The notes under the pieces were generated by a model. It ran no database searches, was not told the DNA's origin, and saw only the letters and a list, made by a program, of their open reading frames with translations. Both the position numbers and the translations under genes were made by a program. From Bacteroidota bacterium (GTDB lineage: Bacteria > Bacteroidota > Bacteroidia > Chitinophagales > Saprospiraceae), in contig JBCCSZ010000001.1 of the NCBI GenBank assembly GCA_039199225.1, positions 7,523 to 71,522 on the forward strand: DNA of 64,000 nucleotides, written 5' to 3'. Each line of letters begins with the position of its first letter. The stretch's first letter is position 1. Positions 6,886 through 52,098 of this stretch are shown in pieces.

Positions 6886-7399
6886 TACCATACTCACACA
6901 TACGCTGCGATTCATCGGGATCACGCTTTTCCAAGTACTTCTTCTAAAAGGAGCTTCCCCAAGCTGGGAAAACTTCAACTACATCCAAATATTTTTGTAT
7001 CCGGTTTTCATCATGTTGTTGCCTTTGCGGACCCCCAATACCCTGGTTATTTTCCTGGGGTTTGTCACTGGCCTGGCAGTCGACCTGTTTTACGACTCTG
7101 TGGGAGTACATGCAAGTGCTTGTGTATTTATGGCCTTCATTCGGCCAGCCATCCTGGCACTGGTCGAACCGCGGGGTGGCTACAATGTTAACCACAGCCC
7201 CACCAAACGCCGCTTTGGCATTGGCTGGTTTACCATTTATTCGAGTTGTCTAATGTTTGCCTTTTTGTTTTGGTACTTTTCTGTGGAGGCATTTACTTTT
7301 TACTATTTCTGGGATATATTGCTAAGAACATTGTCGAGCTTTCTCGTTTCAATGGTTTTTGTGGTTATTTATCAATACATTTTTGATCCGAAGGAATGA
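6878..7399 (+). CDS. mreD: rod shape-determining protein MreD
   Basis: 173 aa polytopic membrane protein. It overlaps the mreC stop by 8 nt and the mrdA start by 4 nt (ATGA). Confidence 0.75.
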   Translation: MNSTILTHTLRFIGITLFQVLLLKGASPSWENFNYIQIFLYPVFIMLLPLRTPNTLVIFLGFVTGLAVDLFYDSVGVHASACVFMAFIRPAILALVEPRGGYNVNHSPTKRRFGIGWFTIYSSCLMFAFLFWYFSVEAFTFYYFWDILLRTLSSFLVSMVFVVIYQYIFDPKE

Positions 7400-13384: not shown

Positions 13385-13458
13385 CGCCTCAGGTAGGGCT
13401 CGAACCTACGACCTACGGATTAACAGTCCGCCGCTCTAACCAGCTGAGCTACTGAGGC
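13385..13458 (-). tRNA. tRNA-Asn (anticodon GTT)
   Basis: Hand-folded cloverleaf, 74 nt:
- acceptor GCCTCAG/CTGAGGC
- D arm GCTC..GAGC
- anticodon stem GCGGA/TCCGT with loop CTGTTAA
- T arm GTAGG-TTCGAGC-CCTAC
- discriminator G
No CCA is encoded. Confidence 0.9.
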
Positions 13459-33878: not shown

Positions 33879-35495
33879 ATGAAGCGCATATTAGCCTTTG
33901 GACTCAGCCTTCTCTTCTGTTTTGTTTTACAAGGACAATCCACACTGCCTATTACTCCTTCTGAAGGGGTCTCTACAGCTACCGACGAAGTTGATCCGGC
34001 TTCCTTTGCAGGTACCATCAACAGTAGTGACTTGCAGACTCACCTGAATATTTTGGCATCTGATGAATTCGAAGGCCGCGAGACTGGGAAACCTGGCAAC
34101 GATAAAGCTGCGGAGTACATATCAGATTATTTTGCGGGATTGGGACTTCCGACTGTTGGGGAGAATGATTCTTATTACCAGCGTATCCGTTTTAATACAG
34201 AGCTGTGGCGTGACATTGACATGCAGGTCAATTCCAAGGCTTTTCGCCATTTGTGGGACTTTATTTCTTTTCCACACCAGAATACGAATTTGGAGGAGCC
34301 TCTGCTAGCAGATGAAGTGATCTTTTTGGGATATGGAATTGCATCGGAAAAGTACAATGATTACAAGGGGGTTAATGTAAAGGACAAAGTGATTTTGATT
34401 TACAAAGGGGAGCCCGTTGATTCAAAAGGGAAGTCTCATGTAACAGGAAGTAAGGAGATGTCCGACTGGACGGAATTGCAGAAGTTGCGTCTGGCAAAAG
34501 AAAAGGGTGTCCGGGCGGTCTTAATCATTGAGGATAAAATCAAAAAATTGCTTCGCAAGAACCGGCAGTATCTAATTGGTCCCTATGTTTCTTTGGGTGA
34601 TCCGGAGAATGATCCGCATCAATTGGCTCGGAGTTGTTACATTTCCACCAATGTGGCTAAGGAGATTATGTCGGGTAATTTTCGAAAAATTGTAAAGGCT
34701 CGAAAGAAAATACGTAAAAAAGGAAAGGCTCGTTCGGTTAAAATTCCCTGTCAATTGCGCATCAAGCACGATAAGAACCTCAAGATTATTGCTGGTAATA
34801 ATGTACTTGGGTACATAGAAGGGAGTGATCCTGTGTTGAAGGAAGAACTCATTGTCGTGACGGCTCATTATGATCATTTGGGAAAACGAGGTGATAATAT
34901 TTACAATGGAGCAGATGACAACGGGTCTGGTACCTCCTCCGTTTTGGAAGTTGCACAAGCATTGGTAGAGGCCAAAAATAGTGGGGCAGGTCCGAGGCGT
35001 TCGGTACTGGTCATGCTGGTAACAGGAGAAGAAAAAGGTTTATTGGGTTCTCAATTTTACACTGCCCGTCCAATATTTCCTCTGGAAAATACGGTGGCCA
35101 ATGTGAATGTGGATATGGTTGGGCGTATTGACCGACGCTACAAAGACGACCCCAACTACATTTACGTTATTGGCTCGAACCGCTTGAGCACGGAGTTGCA
35201 TGAAATCAATGAGGCGATGAATCAGCGATATACCAAATTGAAATTAGATTATAAATACAATGCGAAAAATGATCCGAACCGCTATTACTATCGGAGCGAT
35301 CATTACAATTTTGCGGAAAAAGGCATTCCTGCTATTTTTTATTTTAATGGTACGCACAAAGATTACCACCGAACTTCTGATACGGTTGAAAAAATTAATT
35401 TTGAAAAAATGGAGAAGATTGCGAAACTGGTTTTTCACACGACCTGGGAATTGGCCAATCGTGAAAAACGCATCGTGGTAGACGTAAAAGATTAG
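33879..35495 (+). CDS. M28-family metallopeptidase with a PA (protease-associated) insert
   Basis: 538 aa with a signal peptide. Zinc ligand blocks are VTAHYDHLG, GADDNGSGTS and TGEEKGLLGS...NVDMVG. Confidence 0.85.
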   Translation: MKRILAFGLSLLFCFVLQGQSTLPITPSEGVSTATDEVDPASFAGTINSSDLQTHLNILASDEFEGRETGKPGNDKAAEYISDYFAGLGLPTVGENDSYYQRIRFNTELWRDIDMQVNSKAFRHLWDFISFPHQNTNLEEPLLADEVIFLGYGIASEKYNDYKGVNVKDKVILIYKGEPVDSKGKSHVTGSKEMSDWTELQKLRLAKEKGVRAVLIIEDKIKKLLRKNRQYLIGPYVSLGDPENDPHQLARSCYISTNVAKEIMSGNFRKIVKARKKIRKKGKARSVKIPCQLRIKHDKNLKIIAGNNVLGYIEGSDPVLKEELIVVTAHYDHLGKRGDNIYNGADDNGSGTSSVLEVAQALVEAKNSGAGPRRSVLVMLVTGEEKGLLGSQFYTARPIFPLENTVANVNVDMVGRIDRRYKDDPNYIYVIGSNRLSTELHEINEAMNQRYTKLKLDYKYNAKNDPNRYYYRSDHYNFAEKGIPAIFYFNGTHKDYHRTSDTVEKINFEKMEKIAKLVFHTTWELANREKRIVVDVKD

Positions 35496-35516
35496 AAAAA
35501 GGCAAAGAGTACAAAC

Positions 35517-35552
35517 GCAAAAAGGCCATCGGAATTCCGATGGCCTTTTTGC
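35517..35552 (+). terminator. intrinsic terminator (perfect 36-nt palindrome) after the M28 peptidase
   Basis: The sequence is GCAAAAAGGCCATCGGAATTCCGATGGCCTTTTTGC. A GC-rich stem is flanked by an A-run and a T-run, so it could act in both directions. Confidence 0.75.
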
Positions 35553-35570
35553 GTTTTAAGAAAAAAAGTT

Positions 35571-35645
35571 GAGTGAGTTTAGGACCAGTTCTACCCCCCA
35601 ATAAACTGGTCCCACTCACTCGTTTAGGACCACTTCTGATCCTAA
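35571..35645. repeat. structured double-hairpin element, copy A (candidate ncRNA module)
   Basis: - P1: GAGTGAG 35571-77 pairs with CTCACTC 35615-21.
- P2: GGACCAGTT 35582-90 pairs with AACTGGTCC 35604-12.
- Loop: CTACCCCCCAATA.
- Second hairpin: TTAGGAcCA-CTTC-TGaTCCTAA, 35624-45. Confidence 0.8.
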
Positions 35646-35759
35646 GATTTTTGCAATTAATATCCCAAATAAATTAGTACGAATAAATCATACCGGGGGT
35701 ATTTGTGGGGGGTAACGCAAAAACCGTATTCTTTAAAAAGTTGGTTTTTTCAGTAAGTA

Positions 35760-35835
35760 AAGTGAGATATGAGACCAGCATTACCCCCCAATAAACTGGT
35801 CTCACTCACTTACTTAAGATCACTTCTGATCTTAA
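35760..35835. repeat. structured double-hairpin element, copy B (candidate ncRNA module)
   Basis: - P1: AAGTGAG 35760-66 pairs with CTCACTT 35805-11.
- P2: GAGACCAG 35771-78 pairs with CTGGTCTC 35796-803.
- The loop contains the same TACCCCCCAATAAAC as copy A.
- Second hairpin: TTAAGATCA-CTTC-TGATCTTAA, 35814-35. Confidence 0.8.
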
Positions 35836-35960
35836 TTCTTGTGTATCGTTTCAAGTTTGCTTTTTGAAAACTGGGGGTAACATTTCAAAGGTTTGAGCGG
35901 CCTTTTTTTCGGGGAGGGCCGTATGCTCATTCCTCCTACAATTATCCAAGAACTATGCCA

Positions 35961-36200
35961 TTAAGCCAAAATCATTGGAGATGTTTCCAAATTATTTTTT
36001 GGCAATTCCAACGACAAGTTTTTTGTCCGTGCATCGAGCAGACGGCCATAGGTTTTCTTGTAATCGGCATAGTCAGTATGTTCACTATAAATCAGAGATT
36101 GGTCTTGTTCGAAGAGAAGAAAAATCTGGAAGCAAAGGTTGTTATTTTTGTAGTAGAATTTTGTGAGTAGGTTCTTAATCTGTTCGCCGCGAATATTCAT
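35961..36200 (-). CDS. AT-rich orphan ORF (hypothetical; the start could also be at 36332)
   Basis: 79-123 aa (MNIRGEQIKNLLTKFYYKNNN...) with clearly lower GC than its neighbours. No family recognised, and coding status is uncertain. Confidence 0.3.
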   Translation of the reverse strand: MNIRGEQIKNLLTKFYYKNNNLCFQIFLLFEQDQSLIYSEHTDYADYKKTYGRLLDARTKNLSLELPKNNLETSPMILA

Positions 36201-36454
36201 CTTTAGATCGTTGTAATAATGATTAAATGTGGTTCCGTATGTTCTGATGAAACAATGATAAAGGCATTTACATTTTGAAGTATGTACTAAATGGTTTACT
36301 TGTGACAGGAAAAAAGGCCGACCTATTGACAAAAGCTGTTATTTTAACAGGAATTTTTGCGTTTCCTAGCTACAGTCCGGTCATTTTGGCAGCAAAATCG
36401 GCATGGCACATCCTTTGACCGCAGATCAACAGTTCTCAACCAAAACTCTCAACT

Positions 36455-38320
36455 ATGCAAAAAGGACAGATATCTGTACAAACGGAGAATATATTTCCCA
36501 TCATCAAGCAGTTTTTGTATTCCGATCAGGAGATTTTCTTGCGGGAATTGATCGCCAATGCGGTTGATGCCACTTCCAAACTCAAGGCATTGGCCAACCG
36601 CGGAGATGTCAAAGGCGACATCGGCAATCCCATCATCGAAATCGTCCTCGATAAAGAGGCCAAAACTCTTACCATCAAGGATCAAGGAATTGGGATGACT
36701 TCTGCCGAGGTAGAAAAATACCTCAACCAAGTAGCCTTTTCCAGTGCCAAGGAATTCCTCAAGAAATACGAAAACGAAAGCAGCATCATCGGTCACTTCG
36801 GACTTGGATTTTATTCTGCTTTTATGGTGGCCGAACGAGTAGAGGTTGTCACCAAAACCTACAAGAAGACGCCAAAGGCTGCCCGTTGGACCTGCGACGG
36901 TACTCCTGAATATACCTTGGATGAAGATTCGCGTAAGGATCGTGGAACAGATGTCATCTTGCACATCAGCGAAGACAGTGTCGAATACCTGGAAAACAGC
37001 CGAATCCAATCCCTTTTGGATAAGTACTGTAAGTTTTTGCCAGTTCCCATCAAATTTGGTACGAAGACAGAAACAGTTTACGAAGGCGAAGGAGACGACA
37101 AGGAAGCCAAAGAGACAGAAGTCGACAACTTCATCAATAATACCAACCCAGCCTGGAAGCGCTCCCCTCGTAGTTTGAAAGAGGCAGATTACAAGTCTTT
37201 CTACCAGGAGCTCTATCCCTACAGCCAAGAACCTTTATTCTGGATTCACCTCAACATTGACTTTCCATTCAATCTGACAGGAGTACTCTACTTTCCAAGG
37301 CTCAACAACTCATTGGAAGTACAGAAGAATAAGATTCAATTGTACAGCAATCAGGTGTATGTGACGGATGATGTTAAGGAAATTGTACCTGAATTTTTGA
37401 CCTTACTGCACGGAGTGATTGATTCGCCAGATATTCCTCTGAACGTATCCAGAAGTTATCTGCAGAGCGATCAAAACGTCAAGAAAATTTCTGGTTACAT
37501 CACGAAGAAAGTAGCAGATAAGCTGGCGAACCTCTTCAAAAAAGATCGGGAAGATTTCCAATCTAAGTGGAAAGACCTTGGGGTGTTTATCAAGTATGGA
37601 ATGTTGTCGGACGAGAAATTCCATGATAAAGCCATGAAGTTTGCGGTTTTGAAAAACATTGACAATGAGTTTTCTACCTTAGAAGAGTACAGAGAGAAGA
37701 CCAAAGCCACTCAGACCGATAAATACGACAAGCAGGTTTTCATCTACACCAACAATCCTGCAAATCACCACAGTTTCATCCAAGGTGCCAAGAACAAGGG
37801 GTATGACGTCCTAGAGTTTGACAATGTCATTGACAATCACTTTATGCAGCACTTGGAGCAGAAGATGGATGGGGTTACCTTTGTAAGGGTCGATTCAGAT
37901 ATTCCAGATAATCTCGTGCAGAAGGATGAAGAGCGCGAATCTGTTTTGAGTGAGAAAGAAATTGAAAAGGTCAAGGCGCTGTTCGAAGGGCAGGTCAAGG
38001 CACAAGGGGCCAGCGTACAGCTGAAACCGCTTTCTTCCGAAGACCAGCCGGTTTTGATTACTCGTCCGGAATTCATGCGGCGAATGAAAGAAATGCAGGC
38101 CATGCAAGGTATGCAGTTTGGAAATATGCCTGACAGCTACAACTTGGTGGTCAATACCAACCACCCATTGGTCGCAGAAAAGTTGTTGAAAATGCGGAAT
38201 CAGGAGAAGAAGGAAGATTTTGTGGATCACTTGACCAACTTGGCATTGCTCAACCAGGGTATGTTGACGGGAGAGGCATTGACCAACTTTATCTCCAAGA
38301 GTATTGAATACTTGAAATAA
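36455..38320 (+). CDS. htpG: molecular chaperone HtpG (Hsp90)
   Basis: 621 aa. The N-terminus IFLRELIANAVDA...DQGIGMT is a GHKL ATPase of the Hsp90 type. Confidence 0.95.
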   Translation: MQKGQISVQTENIFPIIKQFLYSDQEIFLRELIANAVDATSKLKALANRGDVKGDIGNPIIEIVLDKEAKTLTIKDQGIGMTSAEVEKYLNQVAFSSAKEFLKKYENESSIIGHFGLGFYSAFMVAERVEVVTKTYKKTPKAARWTCDGTPEYTLDEDSRKDRGTDVILHISEDSVEYLENSRIQSLLDKYCKFLPVPIKFGTKTETVYEGEGDDKEAKETEVDNFINNTNPAWKRSPRSLKEADYKSFYQELYPYSQEPLFWIHLNIDFPFNLTGVLYFPRLNNSLEVQKNKIQLYSNQVYVTDDVKEIVPEFLTLLHGVIDSPDIPLNVSRSYLQSDQNVKKISGYITKKVADKLANLFKKDREDFQSKWKDLGVFIKYGMLSDEKFHDKAMKFAVLKNIDNEFSTLEEYREKTKATQTDKYDKQVFIYTNNPANHHSFIQGAKNKGYDVLEFDNVIDNHFMQHLEQKMDGVTFVRVDSDIPDNLVQKDEERESVLSEKEIEKVKALFEGQVKAQGASVQLKPLSSEDQPVLITRPEFMRRMKEMQAMQGMQFGNMPDSYNLVVNTNHPLVAEKLLKMRNQEKKEDFVDHLTNLALLNQGMLTGEALTNFISKSIEYLK

Positions 38321-49456: not shown

Positions 49457-49641
49457 TTTGTATACGAATTTGAGTCAATGCAAAATACTCTTTTTTCGGA
49501 ACATATCAGGATCAATCGCGATCTGCTTGGCATACAAATTGGATTAGTTTAGCATATGTACCGATAGGAGGCCATCATTCCTCGTAACTTAGGTTAAGCA
49601 ATTCTTATTGTCAGCAGAAAATATTATTTTGTGCGACTTCA

Positions 49642-52098
49642 TTGTTAAGAGAAAACGACAACTTGTACACAAAAATACCCATATTACCCCTTCTCGTTCT
49701 ATTGCTCCTCAACTTTATTGATGCCAATGCCCAGTCGGGACAGAGCAATCTACTGAAGGTCCAAGACAAGAATAAACCCATTCGACCCATTCTGGAGTTC
49801 TTCCCCGAAGGCGGATTTTACGACGAGGCGCTAGAGGTCGAGTTGTTTGCACCTGGTTGCGACATTTATTACACGACAGACGGCAGTAAGCCTGGCCGGA
49901 CCAAAACGAAGTATCGCAAACCGATAAAGGTCCGCAAGACCCTTGTCATTCGAGCCGTTGCTTATCGCGGCAAAATCAAAAGTAAGTTGGGTGGCTTCAC
50001 TTATTTTATAGACGAACCAGAAAGTACCTTTCCGATTGTTTCTTTGGGCGTAAACCCAGAGACGCTTTTCGACCCAGAGAGAGGTTTGTATATGAAAGGG
50101 CCAAATGCAGTTGACTCCCTCTGGACAAAGGACGGCGCCAATTTTTGGAGTCGAAAAGAGGTGCGTATTCACACTGAGATTTACGAAAATGGGAATGATC
50201 GAGTGTTCAGCAGTGGTACGGGCTTGCGTTTGTTTGGTGGGATCAGTCGGCTATTTCCTCAAAAGTCGATGACCATTGTAGCCCGGGACCGCTATGGCAA
50301 AAAGCGTATTCGCCATCCGGTATTTGGGGAAGATGGACTGAAGAAGTTTAAATTTTTGGTTTTCCGTAATTCGGGGAGTGATTGGGGGAAATCTCACTTT
50401 CGCGATGGTCTGATGACCAGCTTGGTGGAAGACTGGGACATTGAAAAACAAGATTTTCGCCCTTCTCAGCTTTACATCAATGGTAAGTACTGGGGGATTT
50501 ACAACATCCGGGAAAAAGTCAACCGCTACTTTATCGAAGGGCATCAGGACATCGACAACGACAGCATTGACCTGATCGAGCATCGCATGACGCTCAAGCG
50601 AGGCAGCCGAGGGCATTATGTAAAGATGTTGCGCTATATCAAAAAGCACTCAATGCGCAATCCGGCGCATTACCAATACATCTGTAGTCAAATGGAGGTG
50701 GAGAATTTCATGGACCATCAGATTGCACAGATTTATTTCGATAACCAGGATGCAGGTGGCAACATTAAGTTTTGGCGGCCTCAAAAGCCCAACGGGCGCT
50801 GGCGCTGGATTCTATACGATACTGATTTTGGTTTTGGCCTACACAATCCGACTGCTTACACGAATAACAGCTTGGCCTTTCACACAAAGCCAGACGGTCC
50901 CGATTGGCCCAACCCCCCTTGGAGTACTTTTCTGCTTCGCAACCTTCTGGGGAATTCGGAATTCCAACGCATGTTTGTCAATCGCTTTGCCGACCGAATC
51001 AATACGAGTTTTGCGCCGGAAAATGTAATGCAGAAAATCGATGCACATTATGAAAAACTATTGCCTGAGATACCGAGGCACCTCAAGCGATGGCGTCTCA
51101 AGAAGAAGCGTTGGGAGAAGCATGTCAACATCCTGCGGAAGTTTGCCCGCCTCCGTCCCGATCACATGCGTATGCACTTGATGGAACGCTTCAAAACGGG
51201 CGATGCCGTTGAGTTGAGTATGATTTGTACCAATGGTGGCAAAATCCTCTTGAACAACAACCTCCAGGTGGAGGGTGGTACGGTGTTTCGCGGTAAGTAC
51301 TTCGAAAACTATCCAATACATTTGAAGGCGCAGCCGCAATTCGGCTACCGCTTTTCTCATTGGGAGGGCCTTCCATTTGAAGAAGCGCCCAGAGACTTAT
51401 CGGTCAAGTTGGAAAAGGACAAGCCCCTTAAGCTTAAGGCTGTTTTTGAGCGGTACATCCATCCATTGGCCGAGAAGCTCATCATTAACGAGGTCAGCGC
51501 GAATAATAAAAAATCGGGTGATTGGATCGAATTGTACAATTCTACCAAAGAGACGATTAGCCTAAACAATTGGGTTTTTACCGATGGGAAAAATGAATTT
51601 CGAATACCAGATGTGTCCATCACTGGAAAGTCCTACTTGGTGTTGTGCGAGGACAGCACCTCTTTTTACCAACAACATCCTGAGTGGATCAAAGTAGCTG
51701 GGAATTTTACTTTCGGCCTAAACAAACGTCGCGAAAGCCTGGGACTGTACACTGACAAGGGAGCCTCGGTAGACAGCACCTCCTACGTGCTGGCACCTAT
51801 GGATTCTACTTTCGTTTGGAGCCACTTATTGCCGCATTTGGACAATGGCGATCGCGAAAACTGGGAAGTTCGCCTGGGCATCGGAACGCCTGGTGGTCCC
51901 AATCCCTATTATTTGGAAAGCCACATCAAGGCAGAGCAGGAAATGTGGGTGCGCATTGGCGTAAGCATCGGTGTACTGCTGTGCTGTTTTTTGGTCTTCC
52001 AACTGAAGAAAAGGCGACAGCCGACCATCATTGTAACCAGGCAAAAAGAGCCACAAAGTCCGAAGCCTCCTCCTAAAAATCCACCGACTTTTCAGTAG
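49642..52098 (+). CDS. CotH-family protein with an N-terminal chitobiase/Fn3-associated motif, a lamin-tail domain and a C-terminal TM anchor
   Basis: 818 aa with a TTG start. It has DIYYTTDGSKP, a CotH core (FRNSGSDW...YINGKYWGIYNIREK...ILYDTDFGFG), an LTD (LIINEVSANN...WIELYN), and a TM helix VSIGVLLCCFLVF followed by a KKRRQ Pro-rich tail. Confidence 0.8.
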   Translation: MLRENDNLYTKIPILPLLVLLLLNFIDANAQSGQSNLLKVQDKNKPIRPILEFFPEGGFYDEALEVELFAPGCDIYYTTDGSKPGRTKTKYRKPIKVRKTLVIRAVAYRGKIKSKLGGFTYFIDEPESTFPIVSLGVNPETLFDPERGLYMKGPNAVDSLWTKDGANFWSRKEVRIHTEIYENGNDRVFSSGTGLRLFGGISRLFPQKSMTIVARDRYGKKRIRHPVFGEDGLKKFKFLVFRNSGSDWGKSHFRDGLMTSLVEDWDIEKQDFRPSQLYINGKYWGIYNIREKVNRYFIEGHQDIDNDSIDLIEHRMTLKRGSRGHYVKMLRYIKKHSMRNPAHYQYICSQMEVENFMDHQIAQIYFDNQDAGGNIKFWRPQKPNGRWRWILYDTDFGFGLHNPTAYTNNSLAFHTKPDGPDWPNPPWSTFLLRNLLGNSEFQRMFVNRFADRINTSFAPENVMQKIDAHYEKLLPEIPRHLKRWRLKKKRWEKHVNILRKFARLRPDHMRMHLMERFKTGDAVELSMICTNGGKILLNNNLQVEGGTVFRGKYFENYPIHLKAQPQFGYRFSHWEGLPFEEAPRDLSVKLEKDKPLKLKAVFERYIHPLAEKLIINEVSANNKKSGDWIELYNSTKETISLNNWVFTDGKNEFRIPDVSITGKSYLVLCEDSTSFYQQHPEWIKVAGNFTFGLNKRRESLGLYTDKGASVDSTSYVLAPMDSTFVWSHLLPHLDNGDRENWEVRLGIGTPGGPNPYYLESHIKAEQEMWVRIGVSIGVLLCCFLVFQLKKRRQPTIIVTRQKEPQSPKPPPKNPPTFQ

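Follow-up and report, generated by a model that had tools for sequence, protein, structure and literature searches.

NrsZ of Pseudomonas aeruginosa is an NtrC/sigma-54-dependent sRNA composed of repeated stem-loop modules and linked to a nitrogen signal, and Qrr1-5 of Vibrio are LuxO/sigma-54-dependent sibling sRNAs that are encoded at dispersed sites, each with its own promoter, and that depend on Hfq. In the CcsR1-4 or 'cuckoo' system of Rhodobacter sphaeroides and other alpha-proteobacteria, a small ORF (ccaF1) is followed by tandem homologous sRNAs under control of stress/heat-shock sigma factors (PMC8034643). For Bacteroidota, mapping of transcription starts in Flavobacterium psychrophilum has placed sigma-54 -24/-12 promoters at groESL, dnaK, grpE-dnaJ, lon, clpB, htpG and one sRNA, and the putative sRNA Rfp36 of that species has a sigma-54-type (SM4) promoter (PMC9723704). 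A comparative study has moreover reported that sigma-54 promoters are enriched ahead of the chaperone and Hsp90 genes of this phylum (PMC12316311).

The regulatory RNA biology of Bacteroidota is a young field. Here we analyzed a 64-kb stretch of Saprospiraceae DNA (the window), in which we consider it reasonably probable that the minus strand of positions 35561-35934 is the gene for a stand-alone non-coding RNA of ~370 nt, made of two tandem sibling units and acting as a sigma-54-driven, trans-acting stress sRNA. In its layout, though not by homology, this locus agrees with CcsR as a set of tandem siblings 3' of a small ORF in a stress-sigma locus: in both systems an ORF of ~70-80 aa is followed by one to four homologous units on the same strand, every unit is built of two hairpins with a homopolymer-like motif conserved in the loop, and the locus, driven by a stress/heat-shock sigma factor (here predicted to be sigma-54), ends in one strong terminator. 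The two differ in that there is no homology in sequence or structure between the CcsR RNAs and the Saprospiraceae RNA, which has no Rfam match, and in that CcsR has CCUCCUCCC in both hairpin loops whereas the loops here are GAAG and GUUUAUUGGGGGGUA, the latter including GGGGGGUA. Moreover, CcaF1 is a DUF1127 protein whereas the 79-aa protein encoded here is not (no Pfam family at E < 0.1), CcsR uses RpoHI/HII where the sigma factor here would be sigma-54, a separate promoter-like element lies between ORF and RNAs here, unlike in CcsR, and the phylum is Bacteroidota instead of the alpha-proteobacterial setting of CcsR. RNase E processing and protein binding are established for CcsR, whereas processing and protein binding of the Saprospiraceae RNA are hypothetical. 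As a non-homologous instance of a layout so far alpha-proteobacterial, it would suggest that this design evolved more than once.

With NrsZ the locus shares the layout of a single sigma-54-type transcription unit, predicted here, that encodes an sRNA of tandem structured modules, but the two are non-homologous and differ in phylum, signal, module size and sequence, and NrsZ has no adjacent chaperone gene. The Qrr RNAs are likewise siblings driven by sigma-54, as is predicted here, with a terminator hairpin and a recognition segment that does not vary; they differ in their dispersed genes, individual promoters and use of Hfq, and show no sequence or structural similarity to the Saprospiraceae RNA. 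Rfp36, compared by description only, similarly belongs, as an sRNA candidate, to the sigma-54 regulon of a Bacteroidota member, but has not been reported as tandem or htpG-linked. A family with strong covariation, a defined strand, predicted ends and promoter type, and with two genomic partners, htpG and the gene for a small protein whose fold is unknown, could give an entry to post-transcriptional tuning of the sigma-54 chaperone regulon.

Conserved fold, strand and distribution

A preliminary description of the locus had proposed a pair of double hairpins with compensatory base changes, and all of its coordinates for the pair agreed with the sequence upon recheck. The repeat copies at 35583-35645 (copy A) and 35773-35835 (copy B) show 84% identity, have starts 190 nt apart, and share both the 15-nt loop TACCCCCCAATAAAC (35592-35606 and 35782-35796, plus-strand reading) and the hairpin-2 loop CTTC. 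For the 20-mer TACCCCCCAATAAACTGGTC, the window has exactly two occurrences where none is expected. From copy A to copy B, G35571-C35621 is replaced by A35760-T35811, G35582-C35612 by A35772-T35802 and, in hairpin 2, G35627-C35642 by A35817-T35832, while the copy A mismatches A35581/C35613 and C35630/A35639 correspond to the pairs G35771-C35803 and T35820-A35829 in copy B. The G-runs GGGGGGTA (35707-35714) and GGGGGTAA (35873-35880), again as read on the plus strand, and a T7 following copy A on the minus strand were also found as described. Both copies, on either strand, gave folding z-scores of -5.8 to -7.3 against shuffled sequence. Runs of C6 are scarce, with 15 on both strands of the window versus 32 in shuffles, and three of these 15 fall within this 200-nt stretch. 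The repeat pattern is far beyond chance and recurs in orthologous loci of other genomes.

A covariance model search found 31 copies at 15 loci (E between 3e-23 and 3e-5), comprising the window, seven Saprospiraceae/Bacteroidota MAGs and seven metagenome contigs. The arrays consist of one to four tandem units, and htpG adjoins them in 15/15 loci, with the RNA located upstream of htpG on the opposite strand. There was one RNA locus per genome in seven genomes, including a complete 6.2-Mb chromosome, and of the 11 loci in which a gene downstream of the array could be called, nine have it in convergent orientation. Searching 80 metagenome htpG loci with a second model, for which all 31 copies were used, gave no further confident members. 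With that model, locus L018 has a borderline, divergent pair of hairpins with a G6 loop.

Compensatory double changes were found at 21 of 24 base pairs over the 31 copies, with 96.9% of paired cells pairing on the RNA strand against 26-50% in slid controls, and none of 500 shuffles reached the observed values. RNAalifold, run on a model-free MAFFT alignment, recovered the same hairpin pair and, among its 21 base pairs, 18 with compensatory changes. The element hence has a conserved secondary structure backed by compensatory changes beyond those of controls, which is the mark of a structured non-coding RNA. The strand had earlier been regarded as ambiguous; the T7 behind copy A was correctly noted at that stage, but the ambiguity is now resolved in favor of the minus strand. 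All 17 of the first-found copies fold better in minus orientation, by 4-18 kcal/mol, G·U pairs number 70 on the minus strand against 6 on the other, paired cells drop to 88.2% on the opposite strand, and model scores are 48-106 bits (about 95) on the RNA strand versus at most 26 bits (about 18) on the opposite strand. A plus-strand RNA is ruled out by these fold energies, G·U counts and scores. Fold, strand, conservation and synteny, together with the promoter-like motif treated below, are in silico findings.

Using cmscan with Rfam 15 over the whole window at gathering thresholds, the sole match was a tRNA at 13385-13458, and a permissive search (E up to 10) of 35400-36100 gave SCARNA15 as its best match with 32.5 bits against a threshold of 65, the remaining ones being at or below 27.5 bits. 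A limited literature search for Saprospiraceae sRNAs found nothing. Judged from these comparisons, the element is a previously undescribed, locus-specific structured small RNA of Saprospiraceae bacteria. The preliminary description had suggested an uncharacterised structured RNA selected for its fold, neither a REP/MITE repeat nor a known Rfam family, and three results support that suggestion: no Rfam 15 family at threshold, one locus per genome in seven genomes, i.e. locus-specific and not dispersed, and strong covariation in a model of 31 copies at 15 loci. A new Rfam family could be founded on the alignment and model.

Architecture of the units

The features of the locus are collected in Table 1. 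The unit is larger than the ~75-nt module of the earlier description, as it also has a leader and, when it is a later unit, a third helix (P3) that keeps the C-runs in an internal loop. Every unit ends in the conserved double hairpin. Hairpin 2 has a GAAG loop on a 9-bp stem, and hairpin 1 is a bulged stem of ~15 bp with a 17-nt loop holding GGGGGGUA, which is invariant in 31/31 hairpin-1 loops. This loop and part of the P1 stem (GUGAGU/ACUCAC) are kept in sequence, beyond pairing. P3 has GGUUUUUGC/GCAAAAAUC arms, is 8-11 bp long in 13 of the 15 later units, and shows the compensatory variants GGUUUUUGC/GCAAAAAUC, GGUCUUUGC/GUAAAGAUC and AUCUCUGUG/UACAGAGAU. The T-rich GGUUUUUGC was also considered as an internal promoter and rejected, as it is instead the covarying 5' arm of P3.

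Table 1. Positions of the features at the Saprospiraceae RNA locus, in window coordinates.
Feature	Position	Strand	Description
M28 peptidase gene	33879..35495	+	Convergent with RNA array; context only
Perfect 22+22-nt palindrome	35513..35556	.	Predicted bidirectional terminator for M28 gene, backstop for RNA array
Unit 2 (later-unit type; copy A)	35561..35733	-	Model match 35559-35656, 102.7 bits, E = 5e-22
Unit 2, start	35727-35733	-	AAGAAUA
Unit 2, P3 5' arm	35716-35725	-	P3 encloses the C-runs, a variable hairpin and GGGAU
Unit 2, C-run 1	35706-35715	-	UUACCCCCCA
Unit 2, C-run 2	35695-35702	-	
Unit 2, GGGAU	35659-35669	-	
Unit 2, P3 3' arm	35646-35655	-	
Unit 2, hairpin 2	35624-35645	-	
Unit 2, hairpin 1	35571-35621	-	Loop 35592-35606
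Unit 2, tail	35561-35567	-	U7
Unit 1 (first-unit type; copy B)	35753..35934	-	Model match 35748-35846, 97 bits, E = 1e-20
Unit 1, leader hairpin	35895-35928	-	C-rich loop CUCCCC; leader ~98 nt
Unit 1, C-run	35871-35880	-	UUACCCCCAG
Unit 1, small hairpin	35849-35869	-	
Unit 1, single-stranded segment	35836-35847	-	GAUACACAAGAA
Unit 1, hairpin 2	35814-35835	-	GAAG loop
Unit 1, hairpin 1	35753-35813	-	Loop GUUUAUUGGGGGGUA, 35782-35796
Sigma-54-type -24/-12 element	35946..35960	-	TGGCATAGTTCTTGG; TGGCAY-N5-TTG-like; directly after TAA stop of small ORF
Small ORF	35961..36200	-	79 aa + stop (MNIRGEQIKNLLTKFYYKNN...); upstream of array, same strand
htpG sigma-54-type promoter	36404-36418 (region 36382..36418)	+	TGGCACATCCTTTGA; conserved upstream CATTTTGGCAG at 36382-36392
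htpG (Hsp90 family)	36455..38320	+	Divergent from small ORF and array; constant RNA neighbor in all loci

Since the RNA strand is the minus strand, the conserved loop is G-rich and its complement is a C-run located ~90-115 nt upstream of the loop, within its own unit. Such loop/run complementarity is enriched, with a run of at least five C in 18 of 30 units versus 5% of control windows. It is absent in L023, L032, L010 and unit 1 of L009, and a pseudoknot or switch through pairing of G-loop and C-run is therefore a possible, not a defining, property of the RNA.

The final unit of every array carries a tail of T7-T9 and internal units T0-T8. Array ends thus have the G+C-rich stem followed by a U-run typical of intrinsic terminators, and unit 1 of the window has no U-run behind hairpin 1. 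The likeness to an intrinsic terminator is confined to hairpin 1 with U7-U9 at the end of every array; the RNA differs in its 17-nt loop with an invariant octamer, its obligatory second hairpin, its covarying extra helices and its internal units, which often lack a U-tail.

Predicted promoter elements, htpG and the small ORF

A TGGCAY-N5-TTG-like element precedes the first unit in 15/15 loci, in nine of them, including the window, right behind the stop codon of the conserved 79-aa ORF, and its spacing is that of the sigma-54 consensus TGGCAC-N5-TTGC. TGGCAY and the spacing are retained in 14 of 15 loci (TGGCCT in L003) and the -12 TTG in 13 of 15 (TCG in L016 and L021). At the final -12 base most loci have G, A or T and not C: L003 and L023 read TTGC, whereas the window (TTGG) and eight further loci read TTGG, TCGG or TTGA in place of the consensus TTGC. 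From promoter spacing alone, the transcription start is predicted at ~35934. The htpG promoters of RNA-bearing loci read TTTGA at -12, and a sigma-54-type promoter, of the type shared with the RNA, was found before htpG in 68 of 85 Bacteroidota htpG loci. Since htpG thus has a matching promoter type and sigma-54 drives Bacteroidota chaperone genes, the RNA is probably switched on alongside htpG, as part of the proteostasis/heat-shock regulon.

The window yielded neither a gene for an enhancer-binding protein nor an upstream activator site, and a six-frame scan of it found no GAFTGA. A third TGGCAY-N5-TTG match in the window, at 49528, lies ahead of a gene for a CotH-domain protein and not of a chaperone gene, and is neutral with regards to the chaperone link. 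A generic promoter/terminator scan, of a kind that does not cover Bacteroidota promoters, returned the M28 palindrome and one weak sigma-70-like site only. Reading the 25-40 nt gaps between units by eye for TTTG or TAnnTTTG (Bacteroidota sigma-A) and for TGGCA revealed no promoters of internal units. Elsewhere, T8 tails are found on internal units (unit 2 of L008, unit 1 of L009), and as no promoter of their own was found for the units that follow, this implies either substantial read-through or an unrecognised promoter.

What had been taken for an AT-rich orphan ORF upstream of the array is in fact a conserved gene of 79 aa, not 123 aa, as seen by tblastn, which found it in 10 other loci, and by an exhaustive phmmer search, which gave a family of 75 representative clusters where a word-indexed search gave just two close relatives. 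It adjoins the RNA in 11 of the 15 RNA loci, window included, and often has a sigma-54-type element of its own. The two can occur apart: in L030 the ORF is present and the RNA absent, and no homologue of the ORF was detected in the RNA-bearing L003, L015, L023 and L032. The protein had no Pfam (E < 0.1), NCBIfam or PDB sequence match, and its confident AlphaFold2 model (pLDDT 89) resembled no PDB fold significantly (best E = 0.16, TM < 0.5).

Possible action of the RNA and alternative explanations

For the proposed sRNA, transcription would start at the sigma-54-type promoter just after the small ORF, read through unit 1, which lacks a U-tail, and stop at the U7 behind unit 2. The RNA most likely acts in trans by base pairing, in which case the invariant G-rich loop would be the main recognition element and the C-runs could serve either as a second seed or as an internal partner that masks the loop. 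The tandem units may provide dosage, or may yield separate sRNAs upon cleavage in the A-rich AAGAAUA linkers. Transcription, its sigma-54 dependence, processing, the trans-acting mode and its targets are predictions; scans of the window for complements of the G-loop gave self matches and matches at chance level only.

Bacteroidota largely lack Shine-Dalgarno-based initiation and mostly lack Hfq. Given the former, a C-rich seed would not necessarily work here in the customary way, by covering a ribosome-binding site. A bolder and rather doubtful version of the proposal would be that this is the first riboregulator of the sigma-54 proteostasis regulon in Bacteroidota, with a G6U loop that does not target mRNAs conventionally but works as a Shine-Dalgarno mimic or in a ribonucleoprotein with the 79-aa protein, and with the C-runs as a built-in, possibly temperature-sensitive, loop mask. 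As a mimic, GGGGGGU could use G·U pairs to bind CCUCC in the 3' tail of 16S rRNA, within a phylum that otherwise avoids Shine-Dalgarno sequences; in the other variant, the loop and the co-located protein of unknown fold would form a stress-induced ribonucleoprotein.

Alternatively, the RNA could be a protein-binding sponge or scaffold, with the GGGGGGUA loop and the GUGAGU/ACUCAC stem as candidate protein site, multiplied by the tandem units, and with the 79-aa product or another RNA-binding protein as ligand. The conservation of loop and stem in sequence and not pairing alone, the multimerised units and the frequent adjacency of the small ORF, often with its own sigma-54-type element, are all consistent with this; a large conserved loop in a terminator hairpin fits a protein-binding site equally well, and CcaF1 offers a precedent, in that it binds the precursor of the CcsR RNAs, which are encoded right behind ccaF1 (PMC8034643). 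We nevertheless regard it as unlikely, as ORF and RNA are found apart in the five loci named above and the 79-aa protein has no recognisable RNA-binding domain.

Somewhat less probable still is that the array is a cis-acting 3' UTR or terminator array of the small ORF, whose hairpins only terminate and stabilise its mRNA, the motif behind the stop codon then not being a promoter. It is true that the array immediately follows the ORF on the same strand, that no terminator separates them, and that hairpin 1 with a U-run resembles an intrinsic terminator. However, L015, L023 and L032 have the RNA without a detectable ORF and still carry TGGCAY-N5-TTG at a similar distance, unit 1 of the window lacks a U-tail, and it would be unusual for a terminator to preserve a 17-nt loop around an invariant octamer, plus another conserved hairpin and P3, across lineages whose neighbor proteins are only ~60% identical.

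A cis-regulatory leader, such as a riboswitch, thermometer or attenuator of a downstream gene, would fit the structured, conserved tandem architecture and the alternative pairing that the G-loop/C-run complementarity could permit, but is largely refuted by gene orientation and thus highly improbable: the next gene on the RNA strand is convergent in most callable loci, the plus-strand fold is poorer, and the element is located between the M28 terminator and an ORF of opposite orientation. A type III toxin-antitoxin (ToxI-like) RNA, which would have short tandem repeats just ahead of a gene for an endoribonuclease toxin, was also rejected, with units of ~190 nt, a position downstream of the 79-aa ORF and a convergent next gene.

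An element acting as DNA, either a REP/MITE-like selfish palindrome or a recombination or replication site working as a single-stranded hairpin, could account for long imperfect palindromes in tandem and for a Logan assembly contig that breaks just behind the M28 gene, but is effectively refuted and equally remote in probability, as there are only two copies in the window and one locus per genome in seven genomes, in fixed synteny with htpG, viral contigs gave no matches (which also argues against a phage or mobile origin), and pairing is strand-specific, with a 70:6 G·U asymmetry that cannot come from selection on double-stranded DNA. The alignment and model would also flag a frequent break-point in Saprospiraceae MAG assemblies.

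Occurrence and copy number of the tandem element

We conclude that the tandem units at 35561–35934, read on the minus strand, belong to a real family of structured sRNAs in Saprospiraceae that had not been catalogued before, and that the fold, strand, conservation and synteny of this family are well supported in silico. The preliminary description had proposed an uncharacterised structured RNA, and this was upheld by the lack of any match to the element in Rfam 15, by covariation and by locus-specific conservation. The best permissive Rfam match, SCARNA15, was spurious, scoring 32.5 bits where the threshold is 65. A repeat search placed the two modules where they had been described (35583–35645 and 35773–35835, 84% identity, spacing 190 nt). 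The 15-nt loop and the CTTC loop were indeed the same in both copies, the three compensatory pairs and two repaired mismatches were visible directly in the window sequence, and the G-runs were found at 35707–35714 and 35873–35880. A loop-spanning 20-mer occurred twice in the window, with none expected, and both modules were far more stably folded than shuffled sequence on either strand (z = −5.8 to −7.3).

The pattern CCAGNNNTACCCCCCAATAAACTGG, scanned against one genome per species (185,579 species), matched seven Saprospiraceae/Bacteroidota MAGs; viral contigs had the motif in no case. The copy count that had been suggested gave a single locus in each MAG, with one to three tandem matches 170–210 nt apart, and this locus-specific, conserved occurrence rules out a dispersed repeat. 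Using tblastn with the proteins of the window, the usual gene order was found to be M28 peptidase (+), array, small ORF (−) and htpG (+). A covariance model, likewise suggested earlier, was built from 17 copies and run on the window, the seven genome loci and 80 metagenome loci retrieved via the HtpG N-terminus, independently of the RNA. It gave 31 copies at E < 1e-3 in 15 loci, all upstream of htpG on the opposite strand, including some with divergent stems and loops that had escaped the exact pattern (loci with such copies: L003 with four units, L007 and L009 with three each, L015 with two, and L010, L016, L021, L023 and L032 with one each).

A second model, made from the full set of 31, yielded just one borderline addition, two divergent hairpins with G6 loops, UAUUUGGGGGGACGC and AACUGGGGGGUG, which lie upstream of htpG in a metagenome locus that is more distant (L018, 2412–2452 and 2562–2610, minus strand), the second being followed by T7. 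These may be remote homologues, which would widen the family. In L003, a masked run of N at about 7050–7150 within the four-unit array made the 5′ domain of one unit unreadable. A further contig (L001, Logan SRR22824307_2639662) encodes the identical M28 peptidase and ends 5 nt past its stop codon, stopping just short of the palindromic terminator and the array, which suggests that these repeats break short-read assemblies.

Fold, strand and anatomy of the units

In the 31-sequence alignment, 96.9% of the cells held standard pairs, changes on both sides were seen for 21 of 24 pairs, and five measures all exceeded every one of 500 shuffles; when partner columns were slid by 1–3, pairing fell to 26–50%. 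RNAalifold returned the same two hairpins both on the model-fitted alignment and on a fresh MAFFT alignment, the latter with 18 of 21 pairs compensatory. Hairpin 1 covaried, for example, as GACCAG/CTGGTC, GATCAG/CTGATC, GATTAA/TTAATC and GACTGG/TCAGTC. The strand was assigned as window minus because that orientation folded better by 4–18 kcal/mol in each of the first 17 copies, because its stems had 70 G·U cells against 6 on the other strand, with 96.9% against 88.2% of cells paired, and because the model scored it at 48–106 bits, with at most 26 bits for the opposite strand. The G·U asymmetry also excluded a DNA palindrome under double-strand selection. A cis leader was rejected because, of the 11 loci in which the gene that follows on the RNA strand could be called, 9 had it in convergent orientation, and a mere terminator of the small ORF because the RNA is also present in loci with no detected ORF and, in L030, the ORF is present without the RNA.

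On the RNA strand, hairpin 2 has 9 bp and mostly a GAAG loop, and hairpin 1 carries a 17-nt loop on a bulged stem of some 15 bp. In the latter, GGGGGGUA was invariant in 31/31 copies, even those found without requiring it, and the 5′ half (UUUAUU) was variable in distant members. The complementarity earlier described between a C6 loop and a downstream G-run reads, on the RNA strand, as one between a G6 loop and a C-run that lies upstream of it within its own unit. In 18 of 30 units, five or more consecutive C were present in the 130 nt 5′ of hairpin 2, compared with 5% of control windows, and C6 runs were rare elsewhere in the window; L023, L032, L010 and unit 1 of L009 had no C-run. Covariation cannot probe this pairing, since both partners are invariant homopolymers, and intramolecular pairing of G-loop and C-run is plausible in most members, as a feature that does not define the family.

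The units took two forms. The first after the putative promoter had a variable leader of about 95 nt, a small hairpin, single-stranded GAUAYAYAAGAA, hairpin 2 and hairpin 1. Later units began with AAGAAUA and a helix P3 (typically GGUUUUUGC/GCAAAAAUC; 8–11 bp in 13 of 15) abutting hairpin 2. Enclosed by P3 were an internal loop that holds a C-run, the short (U)CCC/GGGA helix and, at the apex, a hairpin that varied. P3 covaried as UCUUU/AAAGA in L005, L007 and L009 and as AUCUCUGUG/UACAGAGAU in L003. T-tails were T7–T9 after the last unit of every array and T0–T8 after internal units; in the window, unit 1, which is copy B of the preliminary description, had none and unit 2, its copy A, had T7 at 35561–35567. 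The predicted 375-nt window transcript (folding z = −5.9) kept every one of the elements described above. Promoters were looked for at internal units and none were found, so multi-unit RNAs would most simply be made as a single transcript that is partly terminated at internal units, processed, or both.

Putative promoters, the small ORF and related systems

Features of the array locus and of the Rfam scan in the window
Feature	Position	Strand	Remark
tRNA gene	13385–13458	−	sole above-threshold Rfam match in window
Palindrome, perfect 22+22 nt, no spacer	35513–35556		between convergent M28 gene and RNA array
Putative RNA promoter element TGGCATAGTTCTTGG	35960–35946	−	directly after TAA of small ORF
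Small ORF	35961–36200	−	product 79 aa, 36200–35964
htpG promoter region CATTTTGGCAG-N11-TGGCACATCCTTTGA	36382–36418	+	
htpG −24/−12-like element TGGCAC-N5-TTTGA	36404–36418	+	CATTTTGGCAG upstream

The palindrome is a strong bidirectional terminator. At the other end of the array, a TGGCAY-N5-TTG-like element was found at the equivalent place in 15/15 loci, including those without a detected small ORF (L003, L015, L023 and L032), with departures in three (TGGCCT in L003, TCG in L016 and L021). Its spacing equals that of the sigma-54 consensus TGGCAC-N5-TTGC; the final base of the −12 element often deviated. The htpG −24/−12-like element was present in 68 of 85 Bacteroidota htpG loci, and in most of the listed htpG loci a TTTGGCAG/TTTGTCAG-like element lay about 11–13 nt upstream, possibly as the site of a regulator or as an extension of the promoter. 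Transcription-start mapping in Flavobacterium psychrophilum placed −24/−12 sigma-54 promoters at groESL, lon, dnaK, grpE-dnaJ, htpG, clpB and one sRNA (PMC9723704), and a 2025 comparative study found upstream regions of chaperone and Hsp90 genes enriched in such promoters in Bacteroidota (PMC12316311). The small ORF had its own TGG-N9-TTGC 50–70 nt before the ATG in L004, L005, L006, L007, L009, L010 and L016, the window copy being degenerate. With promoter elements at htpG, small ORF and RNA, the locus has the appearance of three clustered transcription units, each of sigma-54 type. A third TGGCAY-N5-TTG match in the window, TGGCATACAAATTGG (49528–49542, +), lies 114 nt upstream of the gene for an 818-aa protein (49642–52098) with CotH, Fn3-associated and lamin-tail domains, and could be due to chance or be a further promoter of this type.

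A 123-aa product of the small ORF was discarded in favour of the 79-aa protein, which belongs to an uncharacterised, conserved family (about 75 clusters at 50% identity; motif LITKFYYKxNxLCFQILL...Y.EYxDYxxYKK) without match in Pfam, NCBIfam or PDB sequences. AlphaFold2 confidently modelled a four-strand sheet with one helix (pLDDT 89), for which a PDB fold search gave nothing significant. As it has its own sigma-54-type promoter in several loci, this small protein is probably induced by stress.

Among known systems, the closest layout is that of ccaF1-ccsR1-4 of Rhodobacter, where sibling sRNAs of two hairpins each lie in tandem behind a small ORF, with a heat/stress sigma factor in control. 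RNase E excises these RNAs, and the small protein CcaF1 binds them (PMC8034643). In spite of the similar layout there is no homology, and the defining CcsR motifs are absent here. NrsZ and Qrr share with the array its likely sigma-54 control and a modular or sibling organisation, although neither is homologous and the defining motifs of both are absent. From its promoter context the RNA is likely co-regulated with sigma-54/proteostasis, and we infer a putative trans-acting mechanism via the G6 loop.
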